Of a stretch of 64,000 bases of DNA, positions 4,505 to 36,333 are shown piece after piece (position 1 is the stretch's first letter; each line of letters starts with the position of its first letter). The notes under the pieces are model-generated. The model was not told where the DNA came from. It was given only the letters and a program-made list of their open reading frames with translations, and searched no databases. The DNA comes from a virus: positions 1-64,000 of IMG/VR virus record IMGVR_UViG_3300033144_003327; one strand, given 5' to 3'. The position numbers and the translations under genes were made by a program.

Positions 4505-4513
4505 GAGATCACA

Positions 4514-7838: not shown

Positions 7839-8315
7839 GTGAAAGGAATAATGAGAAAGAAAGACTTAAAAGTGCGCCATTATATTATTGGTCGAGTCAA
7901 CCACAAGGTTGCTATCCTCGGTCACTGCTCGTCAGTTGACAATGCTACACGAGCCTCTATCGTGTTGGACGGGATACCCTGCTCCTTCCATACCGATCTC
8001 TACAACAGCCTAGATGCCGAAGATTTCTGGACCCTGTATGAAGACGTCATGGGAGTGAAATTGAGTAGACAACTCATCACAAACCAGATGGCAATCGATC
8101 TTTGGGACAAGTTAGAGGTGACAAAGATACCACACCTCATAAAACCCGGCGCCAAAAAAGTGCTGCGTGAACTCTACTCCTATCCTGGGATGAGTTGGTC
8201 AAAAGAAGAACTCATGATGTTCGTGGCCGGCGGCAAGTGGGACACGATTAGAACGGGTATGAGTGACATGAAATTTAAAATCAAAAAAGTAAGAGGTCAA
8301 TATGTTCGGCAATAA
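7839..8315 (+). CDS. hypothetical protein
   Basis: 158-aa ORF with RBS GAAAGGAATAATG; no recognisable motif. Confidence 0.3.
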   Translation: MKGIMRKKDLKVRHYIIGRVNHKVAILGHCSSVDNATRASIVLDGIPCSFHTDLYNSLDAEDFWTLYEDVMGVKLSRQLITNQMAIDLWDKLEVTKIPHLIKPGAKKVLRELYSYPGMSWSKEELMMFVAGGKWDTIRTGMSDMKFKIKKVRGQYVRQ

Positions 8316-9015
8316 TCCAATAAGAAAGCAGGACCTATCCTCGCCAAACCAGCTGTGGGTGCAAGAGGTGTTCCCTACCATACAGGGTGAGGGTCCCTTT
8401 GCTGGACTGCCCGCGATATTTGTTCGCCTTGCGGGGTGTAACCTCAGGTGCTGGTGGTGTGACACAGATTTCGAATCGTCTACATGGCGTCCAGACATAC
8501 CCGACCTGGTGCAATCAATTGTCGATGCGGGTGAACACATAAAGACTGACCTTGTCGTACTCACAGGAGGCGAGCCGTTCAGGCAAGACATATCAGAGCT
8601 CGTTCATGAGTTGTTAGGATTGAAGTACCGTGTCCAAATTGAAACAAACGGTATAGCCTGGATCCCAGATTTTGAAAGGTACCTCGTCACTGACAGGTGT
8701 ACCATTGTCGTGTCACCAAAAACGGGACGCGTCCATGACAAGATAGAGATGTATGCCAGGGCATGGAAGTACATCGTCAGTGCAAATGATTGTGACAAGG
8801 AAGATGGCCTCCCTGCTATGAGTACTCAACGCGCAGACAAGAGATTACATCTGGCGCGGCCACCAGAGGATGGCCCTGCAGAGATATACGTTCAGGCGTT
8901 GGACGAGTACGATGAAAAGAAAAACAAAGCGAACAACGATCACGCTGTGAGCCTAGTCAAGAAGTACGGTTACCGATTGAGCTATCAAATTCATAAACAT
9001 CTGGGGTTGCCATGA
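8302..9015 (+). CDS. queE: 7-carboxy-7-deazaguanine synthase QueE (radical SAM)
   Basis: FPTIQGEGPFAGLPAIFVRLAGCNLRCWWCDT matches QueE signature FxxxQGEGxxxGxPxxFxRxxGCNLxCxxCDT. Confidence 0.8.
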   Translation: MFGNNPIRKQDLSSPNQLWVQEVFPTIQGEGPFAGLPAIFVRLAGCNLRCWWCDTDFESSTWRPDIPDLVQSIVDAGEHIKTDLVVLTGGEPFRQDISELVHELLGLKYRVQIETNGIAWIPDFERYLVTDRCTIVVSPKTGRVHDKIEMYARAWKYIVSANDCDKEDGLPAMSTQRADKRLHLARPPEDGPAEIYVQALDEYDEKKNKANNDHAVSLVKKYGYRLSYQIHKHLGLP

Positions 9016-9311
9016 ACCTTAACACGATATCATTTGAAGAGGTTTTGAAATTCTACATGGGGTCGATCAAAGACTCTGGATTCTCTGAAGAACAACTCAG
9101 GGCCGCCGAGTTCGCATTCGTTGCTGGCATGAAAGCGGGGTGCGGCGTACAACAGAACAGGTTGGCCCGGTTAGTGTTAGAGATTCGCATGAAAGGTGAG
9201 GAAGAAAAGAAACGAATCTTCCCTGCGATGGCCGATGTGTGCGCAAAGGTCATGGTTGATTTGGAAAAATTAAATATGGATGTCTTAGGCATCCCCTATG
9301 GGACAGGATGA
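9012..9311 (+). CDS. hypothetical protein embedded in deazaguanine cluster
   Basis: 99-aa ORF translationally coupled (ATGA) between queE and queD. Confidence 0.3.
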   Translation: MNLNTISFEEVLKFYMGSIKDSGFSEEQLRAAEFAFVAGMKAGCGVQQNRLARLVLEIRMKGEEEKKRIFPAMADVCAKVMVDLEKLNMDVLGIPYGTG

Positions 9312-9775
9312 TGGAAACTAGAATCACAGCCACACGCTATCACGACTTCAGTTGTGGCCATAGGGTAGTCGGTCATGAAAGTAAATGTCGTTGGCTCCAC
9401 GGTCATAACTATCGAGTGACATTCAGTGTGGAGGCCGACTTCAATCCAGTCACAGGGCGCGGCAAGTTGGATCACGTTGGCCGTGTCGTTGACTTTAGTG
9501 TCATCAAATCTGAGCTGTGCCAATGGCTCGAAGATAATTGGGATCACCGTTTCCTAATGTGGAGAGAGGATCCGTACCTGAAAATCATTAACGAAGATGA
9601 CATGCCGAGCTGTGGTATCCAACCGGTCCCATTTAATCCAACGGCGGAGAATATGGGTGAGTTCTTGATCAACAATGTAGCACCGTCATTGCTATCGCCC
9701 TACCACGTGAAGTTGGTCAAAGTAATCGTAGAAGAAACGCGGAAGTGTTCCGCAGAGGTATCATTATGCGACTGA
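9308..9775 (+). CDS. queD: 6-carboxy-5,6,7,8-tetrahydropterin synthase QueD
   Basis: CGHRVVGHESKCRWLHGHNY (CxxH...HGH zinc motif of PTPS/QueD family). Confidence 0.8.
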   Translation: MMETRITATRYHDFSCGHRVVGHESKCRWLHGHNYRVTFSVEADFNPVTGRGKLDHVGRVVDFSVIKSELCQWLEDNWDHRFLMWREDPYLKIINEDDMPSCGIQPVPFNPTAENMGEFLINNVAPSLLSPYHVKLVKVIVEETRKCSAEVSLCD

Positions 9776-10173
9776 GAGAGAAGTTCCCCGGTAAAACTAG
9801 ATCCCGTGGGTTGAAGGGAAAGGTTTGCGCGGTAAGTTTGAATTCAACATCAAGTGAAGACTCGATAATACTCAGGATCACACTCAGTGAAGATCTCTTG
9901 AGTGAGATGGGATTGGCACTCGGTATGCGAGTCGATATGGATATTGCCGATGGCGTTGATCCGATAGAGATGCTCATCTACGGTGTGGAGGAGGGCGGCT
10001 GGAAGATCCTAGCCAGCGGTGTAACGGGTGACCATAAACACGGTATGATTGTTCCGGTGCTCGCAGTCAGTACCGCACCAGTCAAGAGTGAACGCGCAGA
10101 GATAAAATCCATCGCGGATTATCGTGTGCGCATTGTCGTACCACTGAAGGTTGCAGAGGCATTACAACTATGA
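9766..10173 (+). CDS. hypothetical protein embedded in deazaguanine cluster
   Basis: 136-aa ORF, ATG 9766 overlaps queD stop; coupled to queC. Confidence 0.3.
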
Positions 10174-10895
10174 ATCAGACAGGAAGGGATATAGACCGAG
10201 CAGTCGTCGTGTACAGTGGCGGCATGGATTCATTCACTGTTCTCCATGAGGCTATAGCACGACACGAAGAAGTCTTCGCAGTGTCGTTCAACTATGGACA
10301 ACGCCACAGCAAGGAACTCTCATTTGCTCACGTGGTTTGTGCGATGTATGACATCCCTCATCGTGTCGTTGACTTGCGAAACGTGAGTGGTTTGATTCAA
10401 GGCTCCTCGTTGACGTCTGACATTGACGTACCCGAAGGTCACTACAGTGAAGAGAATATGAAGGCGACGGTCGTTCCAAATAGGAACATGATTATGATCA
10501 GTTTGGCTGTCGGGTACGCCGTCAGCAAGGACTGCCGTAGTGTCTACGTCGGTGCCCACGCCGGTGATCATGCGATCTACCCGGACTGTCGTAAGGAATT
10601 CTTTGAGGCCTTAAACATGGCGACAGTCATCGCCAACTACACACCAGTCAGCATCTGCACACCATTCATTGATCTTTCCAAAGGCGACATACTAGCGACC
10701 GGAAAGGGACTAGGCCTTGAGGCGAAAGATTATCAACTGACTTGGACTTGCTACAACGGACGCGAACAAGCCTGCGGCAAGTGTGGCGCCTGCGTTGAAC
10801 GGTTGGAGGCGTTTGCTCAATGCGGATGGGACGATCCTCTAGATTACGAAGACCGAGAGTTCTGGGTCGACGCGGTGTCGAGAGCAGGGGTATGA
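10170..10895 (+). CDS. queC: 7-cyano-7-deazaguanine synthase QueC
   Basis: [11 protein letters not shown]-loop, C-terminal CxxC...CxxC zinc site ([11 protein letters not shown]). Confidence 0.85.
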
Positions 10896-11455
10896 GCGGA
10901 TCTCGTAACGGTAGGATGGGGGCGTGCCAATACCTCCTGCGGGCAATCGGTGAAGATCCAAAACGGGGTGGACTTGTTGAGACTCCGCAGCGGTTTGAAA
11001 AAGCGTGGGCCTTCTGGACAAAAGGATACGATGAGGACCCCGAAAAGATAATGAAAGTATTTGAAGACGGAGGAGAAAGTTATGACCAGATGGTCTTGGT
11101 TAGAAATATTCCGGTGTATAGTCATTGTGAGCATCATCTTGCTGCTATCTTTGGCGTGGCTCATGTGGGGTATATCCCAGACGGAAGGATCGTCGGACTC
11201 TCAAAACTCAACAGAGTTGTGGATTGCTTTTCACGCAGACTCCAAGTCCAAGAGCGACTCACTGATCAAATTGCAGGATCCATTCATGATGTACTGTCGC
11301 CAAGAGGAGTTGCTGTCCAACTGGTCTGTCGGCACTTGTGCATGGAAAGCCGTGGAGTCTGTCAACAAGGACACGAAACAGTCACCACCGCCCTTAGAGG
11401 ATTGATGAAGACAGATGAAGGAGCCAAGCGAGAATTCTTAGACCAAGTGAGGTAG
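10892..11455 (+). CDS. folE: GTP cyclohydrolase I FolE
   Basis: [31 protein letters not shown] motifs; start at ATG 10892 overlapping queC stop (ATGA). Confidence 0.8.
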
Positions 11456-11460
11456 AGGCG

Positions 11461-11862
11461 ATGCATAGAGTCATCAGTTGTCTGAAAGAGTTCCACGAGG
11501 CTTTTGGGTTGCCGACGGCAGATGAACCTGGCCTGGTGACGATAGAACGTCGGCACTTGAGGATGAAGCTACTTGAAGACGCCTACCACGAGTACAGGTA
11601 CGCAGCAAGAGCGGATAACTTGCTCAAGGTTGCCGAGTCACTCGCAGACATGGCATACGCTATCGGCGGCGCGGCCCTCGAGTACGGTATACCTATTGAC
11701 AAGATCTTTCTTGAGGTGCATAAGAGCAACATGAGCAAATTGATTGACGGACAACCAAACCTAAGAGAAGACGGGAAGGTGCTGAAGGTTCCCGGATATC
11801 ATAAACCAGACGTCGCGGCTGTGTTGTGCGACGAATTGTATGGAGAAGAAGATGCCCGGTGA
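11461..11862 (+). CDS. MazG-like nucleotide pyrophosphohydrolase
   Basis: 133 aa, EFHEAFGLP...E..E pattern of phage MazG/HisE-like all-alpha NTP-PPase. Confidence 0.6.
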   Translation: MHRVISCLKEFHEAFGLPTADEPGLVTIERRHLRMKLLEDAYHEYRYAARADNLLKVAESLADMAYAIGGAALEYGIPIDKIFLEVHKSNMSKLIDGQPNLREDGKVLKVPGYHKPDVAAVLCDELYGEEDAR

Positions 11863-12430
11863 TGATAAAGACGAGTTCGTGGACCACGTATGGATTACGA
11901 CGTTCACGGACAGGAAGTTCCACCTCCACGGTGATGACCCAGACGACATTGACATGGTTGATATCGCCCACGCCCTGAGTAACCAATGCAGGTTCACAGG
12001 TCACGTGAGACGATTCTATTCAGTGGCGCAGCATTCATGTCTGGTGGCCGACATTGTCCGATTGACGGGCGGCACGTTTGAAGAGGGCCGCTCTGCTCTG
12101 TTGCATGACGCGAGTGAAGCCTACCTTAGCGACTTGGCCGCACCTTTTAAGCGACAGGTCACAGGATACAAAGAAGTTGAACTGAAAATAGAGGCACGTA
12201 TTGAGGCCAAGTATAACCTTGTAGGGAAGACTGATGTCGTCAAGAAAGCTGACTGGCTCGCCTTGTTTGTTGAAGCTGAGAATCTTATCAACGCTGATCC
12301 TACACAGTGGGTCGGCTGGGATGAACACGGTGAAGAAGCCCTGGCACTACGGATAGAAATCATTGCTCAGTTGCCGTATTCAGCAGAGAATCAATTCCTA
12401 GACTACGCCAAGGAATTAGGTATCATATAA
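11840..12430 (+). CDS. HD-domain phosphohydrolase (YfbR-like 5'-deoxynucleotidase)
   Basis: VAQHS ... LLHDASEAYLSDL HD signature. Confidence 0.6.
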   Translation: MEKKMPGDDKDEFVDHVWITTFTDRKFHLHGDDPDDIDMVDIAHALSNQCRFTGHVRRFYSVAQHSCLVADIVRLTGGTFEEGRSALLHDASEAYLSDLAAPFKRQVTGYKEVELKIEARIEAKYNLVGKTDVVKKADWLALFVEAENLINADPTQWVGWDEHGEEALALRIEIIAQLPYSAENQFLDYAKELGII

Positions 12431-13122
12431 TGAGTGCACTCAAAGACAGCGTTGACAAAATTGTCACGACATACTTCACAGCGATTACGCGCAAGCCGTT
12501 CACGTATAAAGGGCAGTCTTATTTCCCTCAAGACGTTCGCGTATCGCCAGGCGTGTTTCGTGGGTATACTTGTCCTACGAATTGTGGTGGGTGTTGTCAT
12601 CGGTTCAGCCTTGACTACCTGCCTATTGAGCCTCGTCCTCCAGGAAACGATAGATTCAGTACGCGATTGGTTGAGTTCAACGGTAAAGAATTTGAAATCT
12701 ATTCTGATACGCAACAAGATCATGACGACCATCACTGCATCAATGTCAACAAAAAAGGTGATGGTCCGCAGGTCGTAGATCCAAAAGTGGGTCTCGGTCG
12801 GTGCCAAATACACGGACACCATCCGTTCACTTGCGACTTTGAGCTGTTAAGATTTTCGCACACTGCTAAACCTGAACGACCAAACTATATCAATCAACGA
12901 TTGTACGGACGCGGCTGGGCCATGCTTCGGGTAGATGGTGAGCGCGGTGCCAAATGTGAAATGATCACAGGTGACCCAACCTGGAGAGCCGATACTCAGA
13001 GAAGAATTGGTAGGTTGATGCACTGGGCAGACTTTTTTGGACTGGATCATTGCCTGCTAGAAATCATCGGTTGGGTGGCGACTGGTCCCCATACTGAACC
13101 ACTATTTATCAAGAACACATGA
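12430..13122 (+). CDS. Cys-cluster protein, CxxxCxxCC (YkgJ/UPF0153-like) - unassigned member of deazaguanine cluster
   Basis: [14 protein letters not shown] then [20 protein letters not shown]; located between HD hydrolase and queF. Confidence 0.35.
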
Positions 13123-13133
13123 AGGAGAATGAA

Positions 13134-13679
13134 ATGAACGACCAAACAAAGGGCCTGAAGGCTCTTGGATCAGGAGAAACGAACTATGAATACGAAGGCG
13201 CGAATGCTGATCTACTCGAAAAGTTCGTTTCCCCGTTCTGGGCGGCACCAAGGGAAGGTGACGACGATAATGACGAGCATCATATCGTTCGCAATCCAGT
13301 CGGAGCGGCCGGTAGTGTGCATATTGAAATCCCGGAGTTTACTTCGCTATGTCCGCTCACTGGTCAACCTGACTTCGCTACCATTATCATTGACTACCTT
13401 CCCCGTGAATGGTGCGTGGAATCTAAGTCTCTCAAACTGTATATTGGTTCGTTTCGTAATTCAGGGGAGTTCCATGAGAGCTGTACCTGTCGAATCATCA
13501 ACGATCTTGTGGCACTGCTAGATCCCTACAAGATCCAGGTCCAGGGCAGGTTCACGCCACGCGGTGGCATTCCTTTTTGGCCTGACGCGCAATGGATACA
13601 CCCTGACGTCCACACAGGTGGGCAGCCAGCACCGAAGTCGCAGATTCTAACACCGGGGCGAAACATCTTGAAAGCGTGA
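13134..13679 (+). CDS. queF: NADPH-dependent 7-cyano-7-deazaguanine reductase QueF
   Basis: [17 protein letters not shown] and [18 protein letters not shown] QueF motifs; start at ATG 13134 seven nt after AAGGAG. Confidence 0.8.
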
Positions 13680-13716
13680 ATTTCGTCTCGCGATGATTAT
13701 CAAATTAAGGATCCTG

Positions 13717-13863
13717 ATGGTATTAAAACTGAAAGAGATATGGGGTGACTGGAAATGCAAACTCTTCCACAAGACCCATTGGAAATGGAACGTAAGCAAG
13801 GATCTTCCCTTTGGAGGTAACTATTGGGAATGTCAAAAATGCGGTAGAGGCTGGCGCGTATGA
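13717..13863 (+). CDS. small zinc-ribbon protein
   Basis: 48 aa, CKLFH...CQKCG; ATGA overlap with downstream dpdA-like gene. Confidence 0.25.
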   Translation: MVLKLKEIWGDWKCKLFHKTHWKWNVSKDLPFGGNYWECQKCGRGWRV

Positions 13864-14783
13864 ATCTTTTCTTCTCAGGTGTTGGCAAAGGAGTTATTGA
13901 AGTTGATGAAAGACTCGGATCTCCCAGATTTCGGTTGTTTTCCTGTCATGGAGCGTATTTCAAATATGCCCAAAAAACGGGACCACTGGTCTCATCAATC
14001 GACGATAATTTTGAAATCATGCTTGACTCCGGAGCCTTTACTGCTTGGACGAAAGGAGATGAGGTTACACTTGACCACCTTATCCGTGACTATTCAACCC
14101 TCATTGAAGACTTTGGATATCCCATCGAAAAGATATGGCTCATCAACCTTGACAAGATTCCTGGCGCGCCGGGTCGAACGGCTAGCGAGGAAGAGGTGGA
14201 AGAAGCAATTAAAATCAGCGATGAGAATTTTAACAGACTAGAGGAGGTGTTCGGTGCGAGAGTCGTCCCGGTTTTTCACCAAAATGAGAATGAAGCCCGG
14301 TTGGCGGTGGTCGCAGACATGGCTCAATATATTTGCATTTCTCCTAGGAACGATCTTGGGGAGCGCCATCGTCGTACATGGTCTCAAGAAGTCCACGCCA
14401 AACTCCCTCCAGGAATCAGAACCCACGGTCTCGCAACCACAGGTTTCCCGATGATGACGAAAGTGCCGTGGCACAGCGTAGATTCCGCGACCTGGATTAT
14501 GATCGCGGCGTATGGACACGTCTATTTCAATCGACGTCTGCAGACGATGAGTATTTCGGACGACAGCCCAAATATCCATGAAGCCGATAAACACTACATG
14601 AATATCATAGATGAACAGAAAGAAGTGATGGAAGGCCTGATGAAAAAGTGGGGATTCACACATGACGGTCTCCGCAGCGATTTTGTTGAGAGGGCGATAT
14701 GGAATAGACTAATGATGAGCGAGTTGTATCGCTCCGTGGGTGATATCCACGTACCAATGCAAGAGGGGTTATTTGAGCTATGA
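13860..14783 (+). CDS. dpdA: DpdA-like 7-deazaguanine DNA transglycosylase (TGT superfamily)
   Basis: LDSGAFTAW resembles TGT catalytic DSGGFQ motif, TIM-barrel-sized 307 aa, no C-terminal TGT zinc motif, sits directly after queF in preQ1 cluster. Confidence 0.55.
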   Translation: MNLFFSGVGKGVIEVDERLGSPRFRLFSCHGAYFKYAQKTGPLVSSIDDNFEIMLDSGAFTAWTKGDEVTLDHLIRDYSTLIEDFGYPIEKIWLINLDKIPGAPGRTASEEEVEEAIKISDENFNRLEEVFGARVVPVFHQNENEARLAVVADMAQYICISPRNDLGERHRRTWSQEVHAKLPPGIRTHGLATTGFPMMTKVPWHSVDSATWIMIAAYGHVYFNRRLQTMSISDDSPNIHEADKHYMNIIDEQKEVMEGLMKKWGFTHDGLRSDFVERAIWNRLMMSELYRSVGDIHVPMQEGLFEL

Positions 14784-14877
14784 AGATGAACATTAAAATT
14801 GGAAACGTGACAGTGAACTGGGTATCGGTAGTTCTCGTGCTCGTGGCATGGGGCGTGATAATGTGGGTATCGTTCGC

Positions 14878-15351
14878 ATGAAGGCTTGGCTGAAAGTAAT
14901 TAAACTGGGCCTTTTTGGCAAGGTTGCGATTAAGATAGCGGCACCGTTCGTGGTGCCGTTCTTGTCACCTGAAGAAAGGATGGATCATCACTGGTTCGGT
15001 GTCAGGGATGCAACTGACGTCGGATACTGGAATATCGCGTTCAGAAACGCGGGCCATAACATGTTCACTAGACCGATGCCCAAATACACGACCACCGGGA
15101 ACACGGACGATCAGACACTTGAAAAACTAGACGGATTCCAATGGCGTTACCGCGTCAGCCTCAGTGGCCAATATGTCAGTTTTCGTATGACTTGGGGAGC
15201 ACCATCCAACAAAGGCAAAAAAGAGTTCTATATCGGGTGGGTGATGAATGAAACGAGTTATATGCGATTGTCCTTCTTCCAGTTTCGCCCAGGAATTTTC
15301 GGATGGATATTTATCGCTTGGTTGATTTACACCCTAACGGTGATTTTCTGA
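14878..15351 (+). CDS. hypothetical protein with C-terminal TM helix
   Basis: ORF 14848..15351, probable start MKAWLK; hydrophobic C-terminus IFGWIFIAWLIYTLTVIF. Confidence 0.3.
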   Translation: MKAWLKVIKLGLFGKVAIKIAAPFVVPFLSPEERMDHHWFGVRDATDVGYWNIAFRNAGHNMFTRPMPKYTTTGNTDDQTLEKLDGFQWRYRVSLSGQYVSFRMTWGAPSNKGKKEFYIGWVMNETSYMRLSFFQFRPGIFGWIFIAWLIYTLTVIF

Positions 15352-15423: not shown

Positions 15424-16251
15424 ATGCACGTCGTAATTCACGCAAACAACGTTCCGTGGCAGGTGGAGTACCTGGACCGGTTCATAAAGGGGTTCGAGAA
15501 ACACGGGATGACAGTGGGGACGGTTCCAAATGACGTAGCGATACCTGATGCGATAAACGTCGTCTTCGCCAACAACTCGTGGAAGAAGACAGTCGCTACC
15601 TGTAGCCTGACTGGAATCCCTCTGCTGACAGTCAACCGCTGCTTTTTTGGATCGCGCCACGATATGGTCGCTATAGGGTGGAAGGGGTTCAACGGTGACG
15701 CTGACTTCAGTCTCCAACCGTTCATGCCGGATGACAGGTGGCTGAAACACGGTTTTCAAATGCCTGAATGGCAGGAAGAGAAGGATGGATATGTCTTAAT
15801 CTGTGGTGAATTCAGAGACATGTCTAACTGGTATCGTTCCCTTGACAAAGAGTTGCAGGGGATGAATGTTCGGTTTAGGCCACATCCGTTCACGAACAAA
15901 ATACCCGCGGCGTGGGAACGTGCGCCAGGCAAATTACAGGACGATATCGAAACGGCGCTGGAAGGCGCGCGGGTCTGTATCACGTACGATTCAATCGCAG
16001 GCTGTGACGCAGTACTAGCCGGCGTACCGTCTGTCGCTTACGGCAGAAAGAGCATGGCACGACCAGTCAGTTGTTCCAGCTGGAAGGAGTACTTGGCTGG
16101 CAAGGCACTGCCGAAACGACTGCCGTGGGCGAGCCGGCTCGCATATTGCCAATGGGACCACGAGGAGATTGAAAATGGAGACTTTTGGACACATCTCAGT
16201 TCCGGAAAATCTTATACCCCAGCCGCCATTCGACATTCGGCCCGCCCTTGA
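15424..16251 (+). CDS. hypothetical protein (possible GT-B-type transferase)
   Basis: 275 aa; GYVLICGE...RPHPF...VCITYDSIAGCDAVLAGVPSV resembles C-terminal Rossmann half of GT-B/TagF-like transferases; weak. Confidence 0.3.
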   Translation: MHVVIHANNVPWQVEYLDRFIKGFEKHGMTVGTVPNDVAIPDAINVVFANNSWKKTVATCSLTGIPLLTVNRCFFGSRHDMVAIGWKGFNGDADFSLQPFMPDDRWLKHGFQMPEWQEEKDGYVLICGEFRDMSNWYRSLDKELQGMNVRFRPHPFTNKIPAAWERAPGKLQDDIETALEGARVCITYDSIAGCDAVLAGVPSVAYGRKSMARPVSCSSWKEYLAGKALPKRLPWASRLAYCQWDHEEIENGDFWTHLSSGKSYTPAAIRHSARP

Positions 16252-17617: not shown

Positions 17618-17788
17618 GCAAATTCAGTAGGTGGTGGTGGGGTTTGGATCTCGGGCCAGATTATTGGCGAGGTTTCAGGCGCCGCATGTTCGTGTACGCC
17701 GTCCTCGGATACATCATATTCTTCATTATCCCTGACATGTGGGAATGGTTCGTGATTAACTTCTCCTACCGTGGCGAGGTTTCATGAG
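17615..17788 (+). CDS. small membrane protein
   Basis: 57 aa, W-rich with TM helix (VYAVLGYIIFFIIP), ATGA overlaps at both ends. Confidence 0.25.
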
Positions 17789-19775
17789 TCGATGGGACTC
17801 TATTGGCGTGGCGTGGGAAACGCCCACCAAAGAGAAGAAGAAAGGCGGGGGATATATCAGCACAGTGAGACCAGCGATACCTGAGACACAGTGGAACAGG
17901 CCAACTGAATTTCCAAATCTATCAGCGGCGAAGATGATTGCAGTTGATTTAGAGACACGCGACCCGCAACTGCTACAAAAAGGCCCGGGTCCTCGACGCA
18001 AGGAGGAAGAAGGCGGGTTCATCGCAGGTATAGCGGTTGGCGTTGGCCCGCGTGATGGCGAACAATGGTACTTCCCGATGCGCCATGAAAGTGGCGGCGC
18101 CAATTTTGATCCAGATATGGTTCTTATGTGGGCCAGGGATCAATTATGCAGGCCTAATCAACCGAAACTAGGTGCCAACCTCATGTACGATTTGGACTGG
18201 CTCCAAGACGCGGACGTCCCTGTAGAAGGCCCGTTTTATGACGTCCAAGTAGCAGAACCCCTAATTGATGAGAACGCTTTCAGTTATGCTCTCGGCAAAC
18301 TGGCTGACAAGTATGTCGGCGAAGGAAAGACCGAAGACGCGATGTACGAGTGGCTCTCTCTCGCATTCGGCGGCCAGCCTACACGTAGAGACCAAGGCGG
18401 AAACATCTGGAGAGCTCCCGCACAACTCGCGGGACCATATGCGGAAAGTGACGTTAGACTACCCTTCCTGATATGGGAAGAACAACAGAAAATAATCAAG
18501 CACGAAAACCTGGAGAAGGTGCTTGATCTGGAGACTCGTTTGATTCCGCTCCTATTGGCGATGAAAATTCGCGGCGTAAGGGTTGACACAAGTCAAGCGG
18601 CTGAACTTGACGAGGTCCTGGTCAAAAAGGCAACCGAATTCAGAGAACGGCTCATGGAATTCAACCTTGATCCCCAGAGCCGAGACTCGTTGGAGGGATA
18701 TTGCAATGAGCGCGGCATAAAATTCAAACGAACACCTGCTGGTAACTCATCATTTCCTGGCAAGTGGTTAGAGAAACATCAAGACGAGAATCTGAATCTA
18801 GCATATCAAGTTAGGAGGTTAGAGAAACATGCGGGTACATTTATTGAAGGAACGGTGCTTGGGAACGCTATTAACAACAGAATTCACGGACAATTCCATC
18901 AACTGCGAAACGATGATTATGGCGCGGTATCAGGAAGATTCAGTAGCTCTAATCCCAATCTCCAAAATATCCCGGCGCGAGACGAAGAGCTTGGGCCTCT
19001 CATTCGCGGACTATTTCTGCCTGAGCCTGATGAGGTTTGGTACTGCGATGATTGGTCGCAAATTGAATACCGGCTCCTCGTTCATTACGCAGTTGGTGAT
19101 GGTGCCGATCGAACCAGACGAAAATATTGCGACGACCCGACGACCGACTTCCACAAATACGTCGCCCAAATAGCCGACATCGATCGCAAAGAGGCGAAGA
19201 ACATCAACTTCGGCCTCGTGTACGGAATGGGCGAGCCGGCAATGGCGGCCAACATGGGAAGGTCACTCAAAGAAATCAAACCGATATTCAACGAATACCA
19301 CAAAGAGCTCCCGTTTGTGAGAGAGACCTACAACAAGGTCCAGAAGAGAGCTGAACGGCGTGGGTACATTCACACTCTTTTCGGTCGCCGACGACGCTTC
19401 AATTTGTGGGAACCGAAGAATTGGAACGAAGCGCGGGCCAACACCGCCAAACCTCACGCGGTAGCGATCGAGAAGTGGGGCGAGCAGTGGATTAAAAGAG
19501 CTGGTGGCCACAAGGCGTTAAACGCTCTACTTCAAGGCGGCGCGGCTGACATCATGAAAGTAGCGATGGTCGACATCTGGGAGAGCGGCGTCTGTGACGT
19601 TCTTGGCGCACCTCTGCTGACTGTCCATGATGAATTGAACTGGTCAGCACCGCAGACAAAAGAAGCGGATGAAGCCCACCAGACTGCTTTAGAAATTATG
19701 GAAACCTGCGTAGACTTGCGCATACCGCTGAAAGTAACGACAGGAAAAGGAGACAGTTGGGGTGCCGCCAAATGA
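17784..19775 (+). CDS. polA: DNA polymerase I family A with 3'-5' exonuclease domain
   Basis: IAVDLETRD (exo I), RKEAKNINFGLVYGMG (motif B), LTVHDELNWS (motif C). Confidence 0.9.
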   Translation: MSRWDSIGVAWETPTKEKKKGGGYISTVRPAIPETQWNRPTEFPNLSAAKMIAVDLETRDPQLLQKGPGPRRKEEEGGFIAGIAVGVGPRDGEQWYFPMRHESGGANFDPDMVLMWARDQLCRPNQPKLGANLMYDLDWLQDADVPVEGPFYDVQVAEPLIDENAFSYALGKLADKYVGEGKTEDAMYEWLSLAFGGQPTRRDQGGNIWRAPAQLAGPYAESDVRLPFLIWEEQQKIIKHENLEKVLDLETRLIPLLLAMKIRGVRVDTSQAAELDEVLVKKATEFRERLMEFNLDPQSRDSLEGYCNERGIKFKRTPAGNSSFPGKWLEKHQDENLNLAYQVRRLEKHAGTFIEGTVLGNAINNRIHGQFHQLRNDDYGAVSGRFSSSNPNLQNIPARDEELGPLIRGLFLPEPDEVWYCDDWSQIEYRLLVHYAVGDGADRTRRKYCDDPTTDFHKYVAQIADIDRKEAKNINFGLVYGMGEPAMAANMGRSLKEIKPIFNEYHKELPFVRETYNKVQKRAERRGYIHTLFGRRRRFNLWEPKNWNEARANTAKPHAVAIEKWGEQWIKRAGGHKALNALLQGGAADIMKVAMVDIWESGVCDVLGAPLLTVHDELNWSAPQTKEADEAHQTALEIMETCVDLRIPLKVTTGKGDSWGAAK

Positions 19776-20622
19776 AATTGTTCCCAATATCTATCTTGGC
19801 GAAACTGGCGTCCTGCTCGCCTCCGGGCCTTCTCTTACAGAAGAGCAAGTGGAATTCATTCGTCCATACCACGAACGTGGCGAAATCCGTGTTTTCGGAC
19901 TCAATGACACCTACAAAATTTGTGACTTTCTCGATGTCTTTTATGCCTGCGACCCAAGGTGGTTCGAAGAGAACCTCGACGTTCTTGAGCATCCGTGTAC
20001 CCAAAAATGGACCCAAGATGAACGCGGTGCGGCGAAGTACAAAATTAACCGTATCAAAGGTAGTGGTGGGAAAGGACTCAGCAAAAAGGAAAATCATATC
20101 AATTTCGGATCCAACAGCGGTTTTCAGTTACTGAATCTGGCATGGCACTATGGCATACGACAATTCATTTTATTGGGATACAACATGGATGTCCCTACAG
20201 GGATGCAACAACATTTCTTCGGAAAACATCCCAAACCACTCAACCAAGGGAACAACTATAGAGGATTCGCGAGATCGTTCGCGCAAATTGAAAAATCCGT
20301 CAGTGACCTGATAATCAATTGTACCTACCCGTCTAAACTGGATTGTTTCAGGAAGATGGAATTAGAGGAAGCACTAAATGGAGAACACAGAAGTCGCGGA
20401 CCTGCTGAGCAAAGCACCCCCGAAAAATCAACCGTATCCGGACCATCCAATATCCCCCATCTTCAAGGGGTATACGGGGGTACTCGTCGCTACTGGACCT
20501 TCGTTAAACAGAGCACAATTAGACCTATTGAGAGAATTGCATACGGAGGACCTGGTCAAGGTCTTCTCGATCAACAATGTCTACCAGGTGTACCCGTGGA
20601 CGGATGTCCATCTGTCATGTGA
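19762..20622 (+). CDS. MptE-like / DUF115 (Maf-like) protein, paralog 1; C-terminal 75 codons overlap paralog 2 out of frame
   Basis: GVLLASGPSL motif, FFGKHPKPL; homology to paralog 2 ends near 20400 but no stop until 20622. Confidence 0.5.
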   Translation: MPPNEIVPNIYLGETGVLLASGPSLTEEQVEFIRPYHERGEIRVFGLNDTYKICDFLDVFYACDPRWFEENLDVLEHPCTQKWTQDERGAAKYKINRIKGSGGKGLSKKENHINFGSNSGFQLLNLAWHYGIRQFILLGYNMDVPTGMQQHFFGKHPKPLNQGNNYRGFARSFAQIEKSVSDLIINCTYPSKLDCFRKMELEEALNGEHRSRGPAEQSTPEKSTVSGPSNIPHLQGVYGGTRRYWTFVKQSTIRPIERIAYGGPGQGLLDQQCLPGVPVDGCPSVM

Positions 20623-21151
20623 CGGCCCGTGGTGGCGATGGTACTGGCCAAAAGAACCTGACCTAAGAAACCTGCCCTGCCCGAAATACACCTGGTACCC
20701 CGAAATTGCGAAAGCGTTCGGAATAGATTACATTAAGGCTATCGTGAAAGATGGCCTGTCAACCGATCCCGGCATCGTTCATATCAATCACGGATCAGGT
20801 CCGATGATGATGAACCTAGCGTACCTTTACGGCATCAGGAATGTGGTCCTGCTAGGCCACGATATGAAATTCGCCCCGGACTACAACGCAGCGAAAAGGG
20901 ATCCTGGATCATTTCCACGACACTATTTCGGTGAGTATCCGAAACCATTACAACATTGGCCTTCGGTCAAAGTAAAACCTGACGGAAAGCTAGAAGGTCT
21001 GATTGAGACGTACAGGAAAATGCCGTTCGATGAGCTCGGTATGACAGTCACGAATTGTACGCCTGAATCAGCATTAGAATTCAATTACATGGATTGGAAG
21101 GAGATGGCAGATGGAATTAGGACCGCATCGTCCGGTACACGGGGAGCCTGA
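20378..21151 (+). CDS. MptE-like / DUF115 (Maf-like) protein, paralog 2
   Basis: GVLVATGPSL, YFGEYPKPL; aligns along length with paralog 1. Confidence 0.5.
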   Translation: MENTEVADLLSKAPPKNQPYPDHPISPIFKGYTGVLVATGPSLNRAQLDLLRELHTEDLVKVFSINNVYQVYPWTDVHLSCDGPWWRWYWPKEPDLRNLPCPKYTWYPEIAKAFGIDYIKAIVKDGLSTDPGIVHINHGSGPMMMNLAYLYGIRNVVLLGHDMKFAPDYNAAKRDPGSFPRHYFGEYPKPLQHWPSVKVKPDGKLEGLIETYRKMPFDELGMTVTNCTPESALEFNYMDWKEMADGIRTASSGTRGA

Positions 21152-21800
21152 TTACAAGTGGTATCACCACAAGTTAAAGGGAGTAGATCGTGAACGATGG
21201 ATGCTACCTCAAGACGAAGGGATGTATCAAAACTCCTTTGGTTTCGTTCTGGACAACATTGAAAGAACCGTTAAACACATCCCCGAAGACGACAGACAAT
21301 TGTGCGTTCAAGCCGGCGGGTGTTTCGGACTCTGGCCCTACCTTTACTCACTCTATTTTGAGGAGGTCGTTACGTACGAGCCCATGCCTGTAAATCTCAA
21401 ATGCCTGAAAAGAAATATCAGCGACAGGAAAAACATCACTGCATTCAGAAATGCTCTCAGTGATAAAGAAGAAATGGTTGACATGACCTATTCCAAACCG
21501 AATTTGAACAGCTACGGCGCGCACCACACGAAGTCTGAGGGTAGAATACAGGCATGGCCATTGGACGAATTCTATTGGGAACGGCTCGATCATCTTCAGT
21601 TGGACGTAGAGGGTGACGAGTTGAAAGTCTTGAAAGGTGCGGAACGGGTCATCGGAGAGTTCACTCCCTTAATCACTCTTGAGGTTAGGAACCTGCCGCA
21701 CATGACGATCCCTGCCGCCCGAGCTGAAACATGGTTGAAAAAGACATTCGGGTACAGGGAAATTGATAGGTTTGCCGGAGATAGGTTGTACTCAGTATGA
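21111..21800 (+). CDS. FkbM-family SAM-dependent methyltransferase
   Basis: VQAGGCFG SAM-binding motif and LQLDVEGDELKVLKGAE FkbM signature. Confidence 0.65.
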   Translation: MELGPHRPVHGEPDYKWYHHKLKGVDRERWMLPQDEGMYQNSFGFVLDNIERTVKHIPEDDRQLCVQAGGCFGLWPYLYSLYFEEVVTYEPMPVNLKCLKRNISDRKNITAFRNALSDKEEMVDMTYSKPNLNSYGAHHTKSEGRIQAWPLDEFYWERLDHLQLDVEGDELKVLKGAERVIGEFTPLITLEVRNLPHMTIPAARAETWLKKTFGYREIDRFAGDRLYSV

Positions 21801-22486
21801 AAGAATCAATGACGAAAGAACAATGGCATAAAACATACGGATGGCAGGAACACAACCATACCTATTGGCCTGCCGATTTCAAGTTCTTATGGCCTAATGG
21901 CGATAAGCTACTCCACGGTGACATACCGACTTTGGCACATTTGGACGAATTTGTGTTTCCTCTCGTACCTGAGAAGCGTGTCGCAGTCCAAGCGGGTGGA
22001 GCTATGGGCATGTGGGCCAAGAGAATGGCCCAAGAATTCGGTGTCGTGTATACGTTTGAGCCAAATCCGCAGAGCTTCTATTGCTGTAGTTTCAATTGCC
22101 CGGAGGAAAATGTCGTGCCTTTCCATGCTGCCTTGGGAGCTGAGCCGGCTCTAATCAAAGTGAGCACGCCGCACCGTGAGCAGAATTACGGGGCCAACCG
22201 TGTCACTGGCGCGGGGCACGTTCCCGTCATGACTATCGACAGTCTAGAGCTTGAGCATTGCGACCTCCTGATGTTAGACATCGAGGGATACGAATTGTTC
22301 GCCTTGCAAGGTGCGTTGGAGACGATTAAGAGATGCAAACCTGTCATCGTTCTGGAGGACAAAGGATGCTCCACAGAGTTCGGATATCAAAAAGGGCGCG
22401 TTGAAAGATTCCTGCAGAGAAAGGCGAAGTACCGAACCCATTCACGATTCCATGGCGATAGGGATGTGATACTATGTCCAGAATGA
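21797..22486 (+). CDS. FkbM-family SAM-dependent methyltransferase (paralog)
   Basis: VQAGGAMG and LLMLDIEGYELFALQGA. Confidence 0.65.
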   Translation: MKESMTKEQWHKTYGWQEHNHTYWPADFKFLWPNGDKLLHGDIPTLAHLDEFVFPLVPEKRVAVQAGGAMGMWAKRMAQEFGVVYTFEPNPQSFYCCSFNCPEENVVPFHAALGAEPALIKVSTPHREQNYGANRVTGAGHVPVMTIDSLELEHCDLLMLDIEGYELFALQGALETIKRCKPVIVLEDKGCSTEFGYQKGRVERFLQRKAKYRTHSRFHGDRDVILCPE

Positions 22487-23208
22487 TCACTCAATCAACG
22501 TTGACCACCAACGGTGTCGATTTAAAAACACCTCCCCTGCCGGTGCCACCGCGCGTCACTTCCGGGCCTTCCCCAGCTCATGTGATCGTGGTGTGCGTCT
22601 GGTGGGGGAGTCAATACGGTGTGGAATATGTCGAGAAGCTGAGGAACTCTGTCGCGAGAAATCTCACGATACCCCATGATTTTCTCTGTGTGACGTCCCA
22701 CGTCGGCCCCGACGGTGTCACACGTATTAGTCCACCACGTGGAGGTGAAGGTTGGTGGCAAAAGGTGAACCTATTCGATCCCCTGATGTTCCCCTCCGGT
22801 GTACGAGTCCTCTATTTAGATTTGGATGTGGTCGTGGTTGGCTCTCTCGATAAGCTCGCCTCATCGAATGAACCATTCTGTATGATTGAGAATTACGGCC
22901 CCAACAAAGGCCACGCCGCGCACAATTCATCGATCATGTTGTGGACGCCCGATGAGAAGACCGCAAGGATCTACAACCTGTTCAGTGATGATGTCCCAAA
23001 ACAGCTACACGGTGACCAGTGTTGGATATGGCGCGTAATGAGAGACGACATAACTGATTTTCATCAGAACATGGCCGTGTCATATAAGTATGAAAAAGCG
23101 TCACCGAATTGGCATCACGCTGACGACAAGACTGCTGTCGTCGTGTTCCACGGGCAGCCAAAGCCCCACCAGGTAAAGGACCAAATGATTGTCCAGAATT
23201 GGCAATGA
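22474..23208 (+). CDS. putative GT-A-fold glycosyltransferase
   Basis: VIVVCVWWGSQYG N-terminal beta-strand and LYLDLDVVVVGSLD DxD-like motif. Confidence 0.35.
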   Translation: MSRMITQSTLTTNGVDLKTPPLPVPPRVTSGPSPAHVIVVCVWWGSQYGVEYVEKLRNSVARNLTIPHDFLCVTSHVGPDGVTRISPPRGGEGWWQKVNLFDPLMFPSGVRVLYLDLDVVVVGSLDKLASSNEPFCMIENYGPNKGHAAHNSSIMLWTPDEKTARIYNLFSDDVPKQLHGDQCWIWRVMRDDITDFHQNMAVSYKYEKASPNWHHADDKTAVVVFHGQPKPHQVKDQMIVQNWQ

Positions 23209-31022: not shown

Positions 31023-31478
31023 ATGAACATTGAAGAAAAGATAATAGAATCGAATCGCATTGAAGGGATCAATCGCCCACCTAGAAAGGCTGAGATTGAA
31101 GAGTTCAAACGATTCATAAGGCTAGACGTGATTACGATAGAGGAGTTAGAAAGGTTTGTCGGCGTCTACCAGCCTGGGGCAAAACTCCGCAGTAGGCCAG
31201 GCGACGATTGTCGTGTCGGATCACATCACCCGATAGGCGGCGGCCCTGAGCTCCTACTTGTGTTGACTGAATTATTGACTGAAATTGAAAATAAAACGAT
31301 TCATCCTTTTCATGCTCACATCACCTACGAAACGATTCATCCGTTTATGGACTGCAACGGCAGGTCGGGGCGGATGTTGTGGTACTGGATGATGGCGCAG
31401 CGGTGGGGCGCGGTGTCAACTGACATCGGATTTCTCCATCGGTTCTATTATCAAACATTACATGCGATCCAGAAATGA
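31023..31478 (+). CDS. Fic/Doc-family protein with variant Fic motif
   Basis: HPFMDCNGRSGR vs canonical HPFx(D/E)GNGRxxR (G to C at one position). Confidence 0.55.
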   Translation: MNIEEKIIESNRIEGINRPPRKAEIEEFKRFIRLDVITIEELERFVGVYQPGAKLRSRPGDDCRVGSHHPIGGGPELLLVLTELLTEIENKTIHPFHAHITYETIHPFMDCNGRSGRMLWYWMMAQRWGAVSTDIGFLHRFYYQTLHAIQK

Positions 31479-33696: not shown

Positions 33697-34185
33697 ATGT
33701 CTACTGAAAGGAAAGGAATGGGAACGTTCGGAGTCTTGACACTGTTGTTTATCGGTGGCTTGGCTTGGATGACGATTGAAAACGCTGTGTCGGAGTTTAG
33801 ATTTCCAGGTGCGGTGGTCGAGAGCGGCATCCACGCCAGCGACGACTGTTACGAACAGGACTCTGCTAACTGGCGCGTCGGCTTGTTTGGCGTCAATCAA
33901 GAGTCGATCCGCGACACTGACTGCGAGAAAAGAGAGGCTGCGCGATTAGCATCCGAGGCTGGTATGCCTGAGGTTTCAAAACGGATCATCTGCGGTTTGG
34001 CCGGCTCCATTGCGACGTTTGGCGACGCGGAAAGGTGCATGGCCCAGGTCGGTAACGCCACGACGGTTATCGTTGAGGTTGCCGACCGCGGCGTCTACTG
34101 CGACAAGCGATCCAAGAAGTGGTATAAACGGCTCACATTCAGGGTCAAGCACAATTACCGGAAGTGTATGCGAGGTGAGGTATGA
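33697..34185 (+). CDS. membrane-anchored Cys-containing protein
   Basis: N-terminal TM FGVLTLLFIGGLAWMTI; RBS AAAGGAGAAAGGAAGATG. Confidence 0.3.
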   Translation: MSTERKGMGTFGVLTLLFIGGLAWMTIENAVSEFRFPGAVVESGIHASDDCYEQDSANWRVGLFGVNQESIRDTDCEKREAARLASEAGMPEVSKRIICGLAGSIATFGDAERCMAQVGNATTVIVEVADRGVYCDKRSKKWYKRLTFRVKHNYRKCMRGEV

Positions 34186-34445
34186 AACTCTCCGGAACGG
34201 CGGCAGGATTTTGGATCGCCGTCACAATTATCGTGGTTGTGGGCATCGGGTTTGCTCCAGGTTATGTAAAACCAGAGCGATACGCAGAGAGATGCGTAGA
34301 GTCGCATTCGGTGATTGTGGATGGTACGTGGGTAGGGTGCGTCGGAGACAGCCAGACAGCAGGCAATCTGTGGATCCCGCCAAATGGCCCTGCCCCGATG
34401 GCTGACATAAAAGAACTGGATGATTCTTGGATGGACGGATCATGA
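34182..34445 (+). CDS. small membrane protein
   Basis: TM AAGFWIAVTIIVVVGIGF. Confidence 0.25.
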   Translation: MKLSGTAAGFWIAVTIIVVVGIGFAPGYVKPERYAERCVESHSVIVDGTWVGCVGDSQTAGNLWIPPNGPAPMADIKELDDSWMDGS

Positions 34446-34693
34446 AGACGATCGATGAACAACTGACGGAACTGAAAGAGTGGAGCGGCCAGGGATATTA
34501 CGCGGCGGCGGAGGAACAGATGGCTGGCGAGGCGGCTGCGACGATTGAATTGTTGCTGAAGGAAATAGAGCGCCTGCGTGGTGCAAGGAAGGATGATTGC
34601 GTTGACTTTTTTAGGTGGTGGTGGAATCAACCGGGAAATGATACGGAAGCTGGCTATGACACATGGTTAGCACTAAAGCAGGAGGAATCATGA
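34442..34693 (+). CDS. small RLRG/QEES paralog 1
   Basis: IERLRGARKD, ends ALKQEES with embedded GGAGGA RBS for next gene. Confidence 0.4.
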   Translation: MKTIDEQLTELKEWSGQGYYAAAEEQMAGEAAATIELLLKEIERLRGARKDDCVDFFRWWWNQPGNDTEAGYDTWLALKQEES

Positions 34694-34980
34694 GTAAAGA
34701 ATTTATGAGGGCTGACCGGGACAGGTGGCAGGCTATGGCAAATGATTTGAAAACCCAGAACAAGCGCCTGCGTGGTGAGCGGGACTTGTTGTGTCAAGTG
34801 CTTGAGCGTGGCGGGATTGACTCATCAGCAATTCTTGCCAGTCAAGACGATGGGGGGTTATGGCTTGACGAGAACAAGCGCCTGCGTGGTTTGCTGGATA
34901 GAACCTACGAGTTAGCCAACCACAACAGCGTGGATTGCTATAAGTGCGCAGAGGTAGCGGCACTGCAGGAGGAATCATGA
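34690..34980 (+). CDS. small RLRG/QEES paralog 2 (two RLRG motifs)
   Basis: KRLRGERDLL and KRLRGLLDRT; ends ALQEES; ATGA-coupled. Confidence 0.4.
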   Translation: MSKEFMRADRDRWQAMANDLKTQNKRLRGERDLLCQVLERGGIDSSAILASQDDGGLWLDENKRLRGLLDRTYELANHNSVDCYKCAEVAALQEES

Positions 34981-36310: not shown

Positions 36311-36333
36311 CGCGTTATTAAAAGGAGAAAGGA

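Follow-up and report, generated by a model that had tools for sequence, protein, structure and literature searches.

The five genes directly downstream of the DNA polymerase A (PolA) gene in the 64,000-nt stretch of viral DNA analysed here (the window), together with a KpsC-like gene and probably a sugar module at 2.6–6.4 kb, could well form a system that decorates the virion with a methylated Kdo-type glycan, the acceptor most likely being a head protein. We put this forward as our preferred but tentative reading. The cassette (19762–23208, plus strand) consists of co-oriented, overlapping and tightly packed genes (Table 1), and its open reading frames, paralogy and profile matches confirm both the coordinates and the arrangement that an earlier, sequence-only reading had proposed: a tandem pair of DUF115-like proteins (A and B) and a tandem pair of FkbM methyltransferases (FkbM1 and FkbM2), with a GT-A-like protein (GT), after PolA. 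The start of paralog A overlaps the PolA stop at 19775 by 14 nt, a GAGGA-like ribosome-binding site lies 6 nt ahead of the paralog B ATG at 20378, and the two FkbM genes are joined by an ATGA overlap. Megablast of the 6.2-kb region against phage genomes returned zero matches and no cultured close relative; the PolA of relatives carries PF00476.

Table 1 Cassette genes, their conserved partner and the probable sugar module in the window
Feature	Coordinates	Strand	Remarks
Probable sugar supply/extension module	2634–6389	+	Pfam matches; cassette link suggested by co-occurrence only
Cupin	2634–2987	+	Pfam
GT8	2977–3759	+	Pfam
GT8	3632–4504	+	Pfam
NAD-dependent epimerase/dehydratase	4514–5425	+	Pfam
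Radical SAM/SPASM	5412–6389	+	Pfam
KpsC-like protein	15424–16251	+	Conserved partner of the cassette; retaining beta-Kdo glycosyltransferase fold; upstream of clamp and PolA genes
PolA (context)	17784–19775	+	tblastn, 44% identity to phage PolA genes
DUF115/Maf-core-like paralog A	19762–20622	+	286 aa, GTG start
DUF115/Maf-core-like paralog B	20378–21151	+	257 aa; old, divergent clade with two insertions
FkbM-family SAM methyltransferase 1 (FkbM1)	21111–21800	+	PF05050, TIGR01444
FkbM-family SAM methyltransferase 2 (FkbM2)	21797–22486	+	PF05050, TIGR01444
GT-A-like (GT8-like) glycosyltransferase	22474–23208	+	LDLDVVV (DXD) motif, PHROG_1962

Paralogs A and B share 29% identity (E = 1e-31), a paralogy far beyond chance, and both contain a GPSL motif (LASGPSL in A, VATGPSL in B). 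The catalytic core of A spans amino acids 1–208 (19762–20385) and is followed by a disordered 78-aa tail, which is a second-frame reading over the start of B. We rejected the 'conserved YGG motifs' of this tail as a protein feature, because they arise at least in part from reading the conserved N terminus of B in another frame. Paralog B matches PHROG_4603 at 5.8e-15 and has orthologues with clade-specific substitutions and insertions in the relatives L001, L003, L005 and L006. In the proposed PF01973 profile search, both paralogs scored below the gathering threshold of 34.6 bits (A, 13.5 bits, E = 0.063; B, 22.2 bits, E = 1.4e-4); among the more distant homologues listed, about one in three has a precomputed PF01973 match. 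Structure comparison revealed that the A/B family has the DUF115 fold of the solved members Maf (PDB 5mu5) and MptE (PDB 8sd5), with the alignment extending over 190 residues for Maf versus 150 for MptE and a higher Z for Maf. The invariant D64 and S119-G120, and D/N141, match in spacing the acidic residues and the Ser needed for Maf activity (E324/D415 of MmMaf; D272, S334 and D357 of CbMaf), and on this spacing alone may be their equivalents; in the L005 and L006 orthologues of B, Asn takes the place of D64. Comparison with Cst gave only E = 0.09, the profile aligning with the CMP-binding motifs of CstII, and the catalytic His188 of Cst-II has no aligned counterpart. The 'alpha-2,3-sialyltransferase' label carried by PHROG_4603 proteins is automatic, and our literature search found no test of it.

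The remaining family assignments, like that of the DUF115/Maf-like core, were upheld. FkbM1 and FkbM2 (32% identity, E = 2e-24) both score above the cut-offs of PF05050 (35.5 and 62.3 bits; curated cut-off 22.7) and TIGR01444 (63.1 and 59.7 bits; cut-off 37.7). The GT-A-like protein matches PHROG_1962 'glycosyltransferase' at 4.5e-20 and reaches 23.3 bits against PF01501 (GT8; cut-off 24.3) in an alignment that covers the DXD region only. PDB sequence searches with this protein and FkbM2 gave nothing informative, and tblastn against cultured phages returned only three weak matches for the GT and one for the KpsC-like protein. The top matches of the KpsC-like model were exclusively retaining beta-Kdo transferases with the modified GT-B fold (GT99/GT107). 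Such enzymes have an invariant QXXXD nucleophile motif, a Glu general base and an HP motif (PMC10148158), and of these the window protein keeps HP (H154-P155); in its subgroup G-E-F-R-D replaces GQxxxD (ExxD for QXXXD), and N71 occupies the position of the E of ERG in more distant members, the lineage having Asn or Gly for the Glu base. More distant phage KpsC-like members retain the canonical QXXXD/Glu motifs. The cupin of the sugar module is 71% identical to a cupin adjoining the cassette in L010 and is also found in L041, L060 and L068, and the radical SAM protein is 69% identical to the product of an L001 gene.

The order u275 (the 275-aa KpsC-like protein)...PolA–A–B–(FkbM)–FkbM–GT is kept in L001, L003, L005, L006, L058, L060 and L065, with A at 37–59% identity. 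All of these have the A+B pair and a GT orthologue in the same position, so that the 'two copies of each' that had seemed unusual for a phage represent a conserved feature of the lineage. The second FkbM is found only in L001 and L003, and FkbM2 (61% identical to its orthologues in these two) is the copy retained in all relatives. A single-sequence IMG/VR scan with A gave no matches; an alignment-based scan was needed, and it revealed the DUF115-like enzyme in at least 547 IMG/VR contigs. Neighbourhoods were counted in the best 80 of these relatives and in 29 genomic (prophage) loci. In 44 of the best 80 viral loci the gene is immediately preceded, on its own strand, by portal, protease or major capsid protein (MCP) genes, and at least 23 of the 29 genomic loci have the same head-module layout, although the capsid-adjacent loci share ancestry and are therefore not independent observations. 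In 25 loci, 213–575 nt separate the MCP gene from the DUF115-like gene. Most relatives are situated in capsid modules of HK97-like prophages; in L014 and L072 the gene is flanked by window-type portal and MCP genes, and phage D3 has it (orf7) between its major head gene and its adaptor gene. Tail modules also house the gene, after tail genes in CcrBL9 (gp527) and within a T4-like module in L007. The small proteins encoded between the MCP and DUF115-like genes of relatives have no homologue in the window. Neighbours in the best 80 loci include KpsC-like proteins (23/80), FkbM (18/80), Methyltransf_23 (18/80), GT9 (6/80) and other glycosyltransferases (29/80). Companion genes further include a hexapeptide acyltransferase in L072 and, in one relative only (L010), a bona fide Kdo-8-phosphate synthase, KdsA, inside such a cluster (NF003543, 333 bits; cut-off 242).

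The location of the DUF115-like gene beside a capsid gene in other phages makes the virus particle itself the probable target, and the partner enzymes (the KpsC-like beta-Kdo-transferase fold, GT9, and KdsA in L010) point to a Kdo-type sugar from the host pool. The idea of a glycosylation system is supported, and so is its link to the virion, by evidence that the earlier reading lacked: head-module placement across phages, typically 213–575 nt after the MCP gene, argues for it, whereas in the window phage and its closest relatives the cassette resides in the replication (early/middle) module, away from the capsid gene. Nothing ties the Thr-rich giant repeat protein (55460), the target suggested earlier, to the cassette; the CcrBL9 tail protein gp528, considered as a homologue of that protein, is not homologous to it. 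As for the donor sugar, the sequence of reactions and the acceptor, we infer the following. The cassette products would be soluble enzymes of the cytoplasm that together make and modify a short glycan. As minimal Maf/Cst-type cores, A and B would most likely transfer a CMP-activated ulosonic acid. The simplest choice of donor would be Kdo drawn from the CMP-Kdo pool of the host; the window yielded no CMP-sugar synthetase. The KpsC-like protein may add or process a further Kdo-type residue, the GT-A/GT8 enzymes may add hexoses and the two FkbM enzymes may O-methylate sugar hydroxyls. The acceptor, most likely the major capsid protein or a head accessory protein, would yield a glycosylated particle; a Ser/Thr-rich tail suited to glycosylation is not obvious on the capsid protein.

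Maf enzymes transfer Kdo and Neu5Ac onto Ser/Thr (bioRxiv 10.1101/2020.06.03.131540), and we compared the paralogs with the flagellin nonulosonic-acid/Kdo O-glycosyltransferases of Magnetospirillum (PDB 5mu5), Clostridium botulinum and Geobacillus. The proposed Maf-type character holds for the DUF115/Maf-like catalytic core and fails for the rest. Maf proteins are multi-domain (~600 aa) and have N- and C-terminal acceptor-binding domains, both absent from the phage proteins (a core of ~208 aa plus the disordered tail in A, 257 aa in B). Maf genes are linked to flagellin and nonulosonic acid (NulO) genes, whereas the partners in phage relatives are KpsC-like, GT9, GT8-like and methyltransferase genes, and no flagellin or Pse/Leg/Neu5Ac synthesis genes were found among the window proteins scanned. 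Campylobacter Cst-I/Cst-II (GT42) act on a lipooligosaccharide (LOS) sugar, and the phage side lacks sialic acid synthesis genes. In contrast to KpsC/KpsS, WbbB and KrKA (GT107/GT99), the phage KpsC-like protein is a single 275-aa module with no membrane anchor. There are viral parallels too. Phage-encoded capsid glycosylation is known in mycobacteriophages (Che8, Corndog and Myrna; Freeman et al. 2023, as cited in PMC11256854). Chlorovirus capsid glycan enzymes include methyltransferase domains. Both systems have virus-encoded cytoplasmic glycosyltransferases that, with O-methyltransferases, decorate capsid proteins. As in the mycobacteriophage and chlorovirus systems, the genes lie beside structural genes in many relatives; they differ from those systems in glycosyltransferase families and sugars, in their apparently Gram-negative hosts and, in the window, in their location behind the polymerase.

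The main rival is that the cassette remodels the host envelope, a possible though less likely reading in which the enzymes modify the lipopolysaccharide (LPS) inner or outer core, a Kdo-linked glycolipid or a capsule primer of the infected cell at the cytoplasmic face of the inner membrane. The receptor would thereby be changed or masked, leading to superinfection exclusion or fewer progeny lost on cell debris. Such a target is favoured by enzyme families typical of LPS/LOS/capsule assembly (the KpsC-like fold, GT8, GT9 in relatives, similarity to Cst-type LOS sialyltransferases) and by a PagL-like lipid A deacylase (signal peptide, RH[FW]SNAGT motif) whose gene adjoins the KpsC-like gene in the sister phages L001 and L003. 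It is also kept in play by the replication-module location, where the lineage's cassette is co-transcribed with replication genes, and kdsA/kdsB of cyanophages have been read as cell-surface modifiers (PMC12801897). The replication-module location and the PagL-like gene of L001 and L003 speak against a virion target, and the altered motifs of the window's KpsC-like protein, the single KdsA, the missing CMP-sugar synthetase and the capsid protein's lack of an obvious Ser/Thr-rich tail also count against our preferred reading. However, most other phages keep the DUF115-like gene and its partners right behind the capsid gene, inside late head or tail modules, a placement that is difficult to reconcile with an LPS modifier; PagL was not found in the window, and slow LPS turnover would leave little gain for a lytic phage with its own polymerase.

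It is very improbable that the enzymes instead glycosylate and/or methylate a modified DNA base such as dPreQ1 for extended restriction protection. In favour of this reading, a complete dPreQ1 pathway (QueE, QueD, QueC, FolE, QueF and DpdA) is encoded 5–11 kb upstream, the position of the cassette right behind PolA places it among DNA metabolism genes, the N terminus of some A orthologues is extended by a Lys/Arg-rich stretch, and DNA-hypermodifying phage glycosyltransferases are known (10.1101/2023.12.21.572611; PMC13326640). Nevertheless, Que/DpdA genes occur within 8 kb of the DUF115-like gene in 0/80 viral and 0/29 genomic loci and are absent from the equivalent position in the PolA-linked relatives L005, L006 and L060, and the capsid modules of HK97-like prophages that house most relatives fit poorly with such a role. 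Furthermore, the dPreQ1 acceptor group is an amine, not a hydroxyl, and no thymidylate-synthase-like hydroxylase/hydroxymethylase was found among the window proteins scanned. We rejected the FkbM enzymes as dPreQ1 methyltransferases because DpdM, the known enzyme of this kind, belongs to DUF3109, whose fold carries a CxxxCxxCC metal motif (PMC10516641), and because the cassette is also found where Que genes are lacking; the literature on glycosylated 5hmC/5hoC DNA systems yielded no links to FkbM, sialyltransferase-like or deazaguanine enzymes. We give equally little credence to A and B as MptE/thiamine-pyrophosphokinase-type enzymes acting on a pterin/7-deazapurine intermediate or hydroxymethylated base, an earlier suggestion for which the window offers FolE and the PTPS-family QueD, since archaeal MptE is a 6-hydroxymethyl-7,8-dihydropterin pyrophosphokinase of the pterin pathway and not a glycosyltransferase, the phage family travels with glycosyltransferases and sugar-tailoring enzymes including methyltransferases beside capsid genes and never with pterin or queuosine genes across >100 loci, and the better Maf alignment and the match to the CstII CMP-binding motifs count against a kinase.

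Mycobacteriophages and giant viruses are established cases of virion glycosylation, and our literature search found no report of it in phages of Gram-negative bacteria, which apparently are the hosts here. A bolder and rather doubtful extension is that many tailed phages with Gram-negative hosts carry on their heads an O-methylated glycan resembling the LPS inner core, made of Kdo and perhaps heptose and hexose as well, and draw on the host CMP-Kdo pool for it; the window would contain a duplicated and relocated set of the enzymes, and the at least 547 IMG/VR contigs would make this a widespread form of virion glycosylation. In such phages a minimal Maf/Cst-like ulosonic-acid transferase would prime Ser/Thr of a head protein, alongside KpsC-like beta-Kdo transferases, GT9/GT8 extenders and methyltransferases of the FkbM or class I type. 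The cultured carriers D3 and CcrBL9 make a direct test possible for either target. If the target is host LPS, the cassette would exemplify a lytic phage rewriting its own receptor during infection. If instead the virion bears a Kdo-type methylated capsid glycan, minimal Maf-like and KpsC-like enzymes would constitute a protein-O-Kdo glycosylation system, and the glycan would alter the recognition of particles by antibodies, lectins and host surfaces, with relevance to phage therapy and environmental virus decay.

The window is a phage genome in which every long gene lies on the + strand and the terminase, portal and major head genes are located at 37-50 kb, head proteins being encoded at 48974-50029 and 50096-50683. 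Directly 3′ of the DNA polymerase A (PolA) gene lie five genes that mutually overlap by short stretches (19762-23208), and our analysis confirmed the gene set described in the sequence-only reading: two DUF115/Maf-core-like paralogs (A and B), two FkbM methyltransferases and a GT-A/GT8-like protein (GT), with the DUF115 assignment being one of remote homology. A and B share 29% identity (E=1e-31), and FkbM1 and FkbM2 share 32% (E=2e-24). As that reading had anticipated, both methyltransferases passed the curated PF05050 threshold. The PF01973 match it had also anticipated was not obtained, since neither A (13.5 bits) nor B (22.2 bits) reached the threshold of 34.6 bits, but both matched PHROG_4603, which bears the label 'alpha-2,3-sialyltransferase'. 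GT scored 1 bit below the GT8 profile threshold, the matched part being the DXD segment.

Genes of the dPreQ1 pathway, PolA and the downstream cassette in the window
Feature	Position	Strand	Evidence or role
QueE	8302-9015	+	dPreQ1 pathway
QueD	9308-9775	+	dPreQ1 pathway
QueC	10170-10895	+	dPreQ1 pathway
FolE	10820-11455	+	dPreQ1 pathway
QueF	13119-13679	+	dPreQ1 pathway
DpdA transglycosylase	13860-14783	+	PHROG_887, 4.9e-43
DNA polymerase A	17784-19775	+	44% identity to PolA of Vibrio, Microcystis, Stenotrophomonas, Pseudomonas siphophages
A, DUF115/Maf-core-like	19762-20622	+	PHROG_4603, 4.7e-33
B, DUF115/Maf-core-like	20378-21151	+	PHROG_4603, 5.8e-15
FkbM1 methyltransferase	21111-21800	+	PF05050 and TIGR01444 above curated thresholds
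FkbM2 methyltransferase	21797-22486	+	PF05050 and TIGR01444 above curated thresholds
GT, 244 aa	22474-23208	+	PHROG_1962, 4.5e-20

The order KpsC-like ... PolA-A-B-(FkbM)-FkbM-GT is kept in the metagenomic contigs L001, L003, L005 and L006, whose A orthologues are 46-59% identical to A, and the cassette order is also kept in the IMG/VR contigs L058, L060 and L065. The A/B duplication is older than these lineages, with insertions and substitutions peculiar to the B clade; among the relatives, two FkbMs are retained only in L001 and L003. The A ORF continues past the B start for 245 nt (20378-20622; about 80 codons) in the other frame, and the A tail encoded there is predicted to be disordered. 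A corresponding overlap is present in L001, L003 and L006 after restoration of the true upstream, GPSL-encoding start of B, and L005 has none. Upon synonymous reshuffling of B codons, the A frame stayed open equally long in 0.96% (window), 0.045% (L001), 4.7% (L003) and 28% (L006) of trials; the overlap may therefore represent a maintained overprinted extension of A.

The most informative result was the distribution of DUF115-like genes elsewhere. At least 547 IMG/VR contigs carry DUF115-like relatives, and gene context was counted in the best 80. Capsid-adjacent loci are of common ancestry, so that their count overstates the independent evidence: recognisable head genes lie directly upstream on the same strand in 44 of the best 80 IMG/VR loci, an HK97-like head module (portal-protease-MCP-DUF115-like) occurs in at least 23 of 29 loci found by scanning bacterial and MAG genomes (chiefly Alphaproteobacteria), and in 25 loci a gap of 213-575 nt (median about 236) separates the end of the MCP match from the start of the DUF115-like match downstream. 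Only three of the best 80 IMG/VR loci have a PolA-linked DUF115-like gene. Partners in this set were KpsC-like (23), FkbM (18), Methyltransf_23 (18), other glycosyltransferase (29) and GT9 (6) genes, with Que genes near the DUF115-like gene in none; in the genomic loci, KpsC-like, GT9, FkbM or methyltransferase genes often come next after it. In contigs L072 and L014 the DUF115-like gene is surrounded by portal and MCP genes of the same type as in the window and has a hexapeptide acyltransferase or methyltransferase gene beside it. In phage D3, orf7 is flanked by the genes for the major head protein and the head-tail adaptor, and a Methyltransf_23 gene is close by. In Caulobacter phage CcrBL9, gp527 lies 3′ of tail genes and is followed by two KpsC-like proteins, one protein without family assignment, then a methyltransferase and finally a GT9 enzyme. 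Besides an A homologue (48% identity), the marine contig L010 carries GT8-like, two KpsC-like, FkbM, GT9 and cupin genes, the cupin being 71% identical to that of the window, and encodes a genuine Kdo-8-phosphate synthase (KdsA; NF003543, 333 bits versus a cut-off of 242). The tblastn match of A in D3 (4001-4531) begins 90 nt 5′ of the annotated orf7 start, overlapping orf6.5, so that orf7 is probably annotated too short, without its N-terminal nucleotide-binding strand.

A Foldseek search with the DUF115-like protein ranked the archaeal MptE structure 8sd5 first (E=1.6e-3). The family profile gave a weak alignment (E=0.09) with the Campylobacter GT42 sialyltransferase Cst-II; it covered two CMP-binding elements of that enzyme, the GxGPSL loop and the SG...LG..I.L.G.D segment. 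Residues G22, P23, L25, N48, D64, W67, S119, G120, G139, H151 and N186 are invariant or nearly so, and D64, S119 and D/N141 resemble, in their spacing along the sequence, D272, S334 and D357, which were shown to be necessary in a Clostridium Maf (10.1101/2020.06.03.131540). The fold by itself does not discriminate between a CMP-sugar transferase and a pyrophosphokinase. Since glycosyltransferases and sugar-tailoring enzymes constantly accompany A and B, the preferred reading of both is as glycosyltransferases and not as kinases.

Both the Maf/Cst-like and the KpsC-like family, which are unrelated to each other, use CMP-activated ulosonic acids. Because these two families are found together, most carriers are devoid of sugar-nucleotide genes and KdsA was seen once, host CMP-Kdo would be the most economical donor. 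The KpsC-like protein of the window (15424-16251) has a predicted beta-Kdo-transferase fold, but its catalytic motifs are degenerate in this lineage (N71 replaces the Glu base and G-E-F-R-D replaces GQxxxD), whereas the canonical motifs are intact in phage homologues at greater distance. The acceptor would be a head protein, favoured because capsid-gene adjacency recurs in several structural-module types, and capsid glycosylation in mycobacteriophages, as cited in PMC11256854, offers a parallel. We consider it probable that the cassette builds a glycan with ulosonic-acid-type transferases and sugar O-methyltransferases; the full reading of Kdo-type transfer, extension and O-methylation, most likely on a head protein, is proposed tentatively, at slightly under even chances.

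Remodelling of host LPS by the cassette is the main rival reading and is considered fairly unlikely; it draws support from the LPS-like enzyme repertoire, the position of the cassette in an early module in this phage and a PagL-like lipid A deacylase encoded by the sister phages L001 and L003. These PagL-like proteins (lipid A 3-O-deacylase family; L001 4787-5272, L003 5314-5808) bear a signal peptide as well as an RH[FW]SNAGT motif, and their genes neighbour the KpsC-like gene. No homologue is present in the window, which at the corresponding place carries DpdA and a 167-aa protein (14848-15351) with hydrophobic ends and no family match.

The region upstream of the cassette (8302-14783) contains a complete 7-deazaguanine (dPreQ1) DNA-modification pathway together with MazG-like and HD-like proteins, and given this pathway dPreQ1 is very probably present in the phage DNA; Que/DpdA genes are absent at the equivalent place in L005, L006 and L060. 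The modified-base or MptE-like alternative of the sequence-only reading has lost ground: DNA hypermodification by the cassette is highly improbable, considering that Que genes showed no association at all with the DUF115-like family across the loci counted, the capsid-module contexts and a validated dPreQ1 methyltransferase of another family than FkbM (PMC10516641), and the first two points make an MptE-type kinase function of A and B scarcely credible.

Upstream of the dPreQ1 genes is a sugar module in which two GT8 enzymes (89 and 63 bits) are encoded together with a cupin, an epimerase/dehydratase of the NAD-dependent type and a radical SAM/SPASM enzyme (5412-6389). The radical SAM/SPASM enzyme is 69% identical to an L001 gene product and matches only generic families (maturase, MoaA, BlsE-like). 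A 1635-aa protein (55460-60367) consists nearly entirely of 63-nt (21-aa) repeats (GTVAATTLDDTLVAxGEQDNR-like; 16% Thr), which also give rise to a spurious 921-aa antisense ORF (56779-59544); it had no PHROG family match, and we found no evidence linking it to the glycosylation genes, as had been suggested. A 151-aa protein (31023-31478) with a Fic/DOC domain match (28 bits versus a cut-off of 24) may be a host-takeover AMPylase or toxin-like protein. The 34000-40000 region has few long ORFs and an anomalous composition, with a GC skew maximum of 0.26 at 34-36 kb; at 38-40 kb the skew is negative and GC content falls to 0.44. Between 40.2 and 43.0 kb, a 2.7-kb stretch without ORFs of at least 120 aa includes a 46-nt AT-rich tandem repeat (42319-42427; 2.3 copies, 85% matches). 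This repeat, which precedes the large terminase gene by about 530 nt, may serve in packaging or regulation. The entire window yielded no tRNA genes.

Searches of the paper library returned no experimental work on the phage DUF115-like family. Virus-encoded glycosylation is already known; here the enzyme set is unusual, and its distribution is wide and has gone unnoticed.
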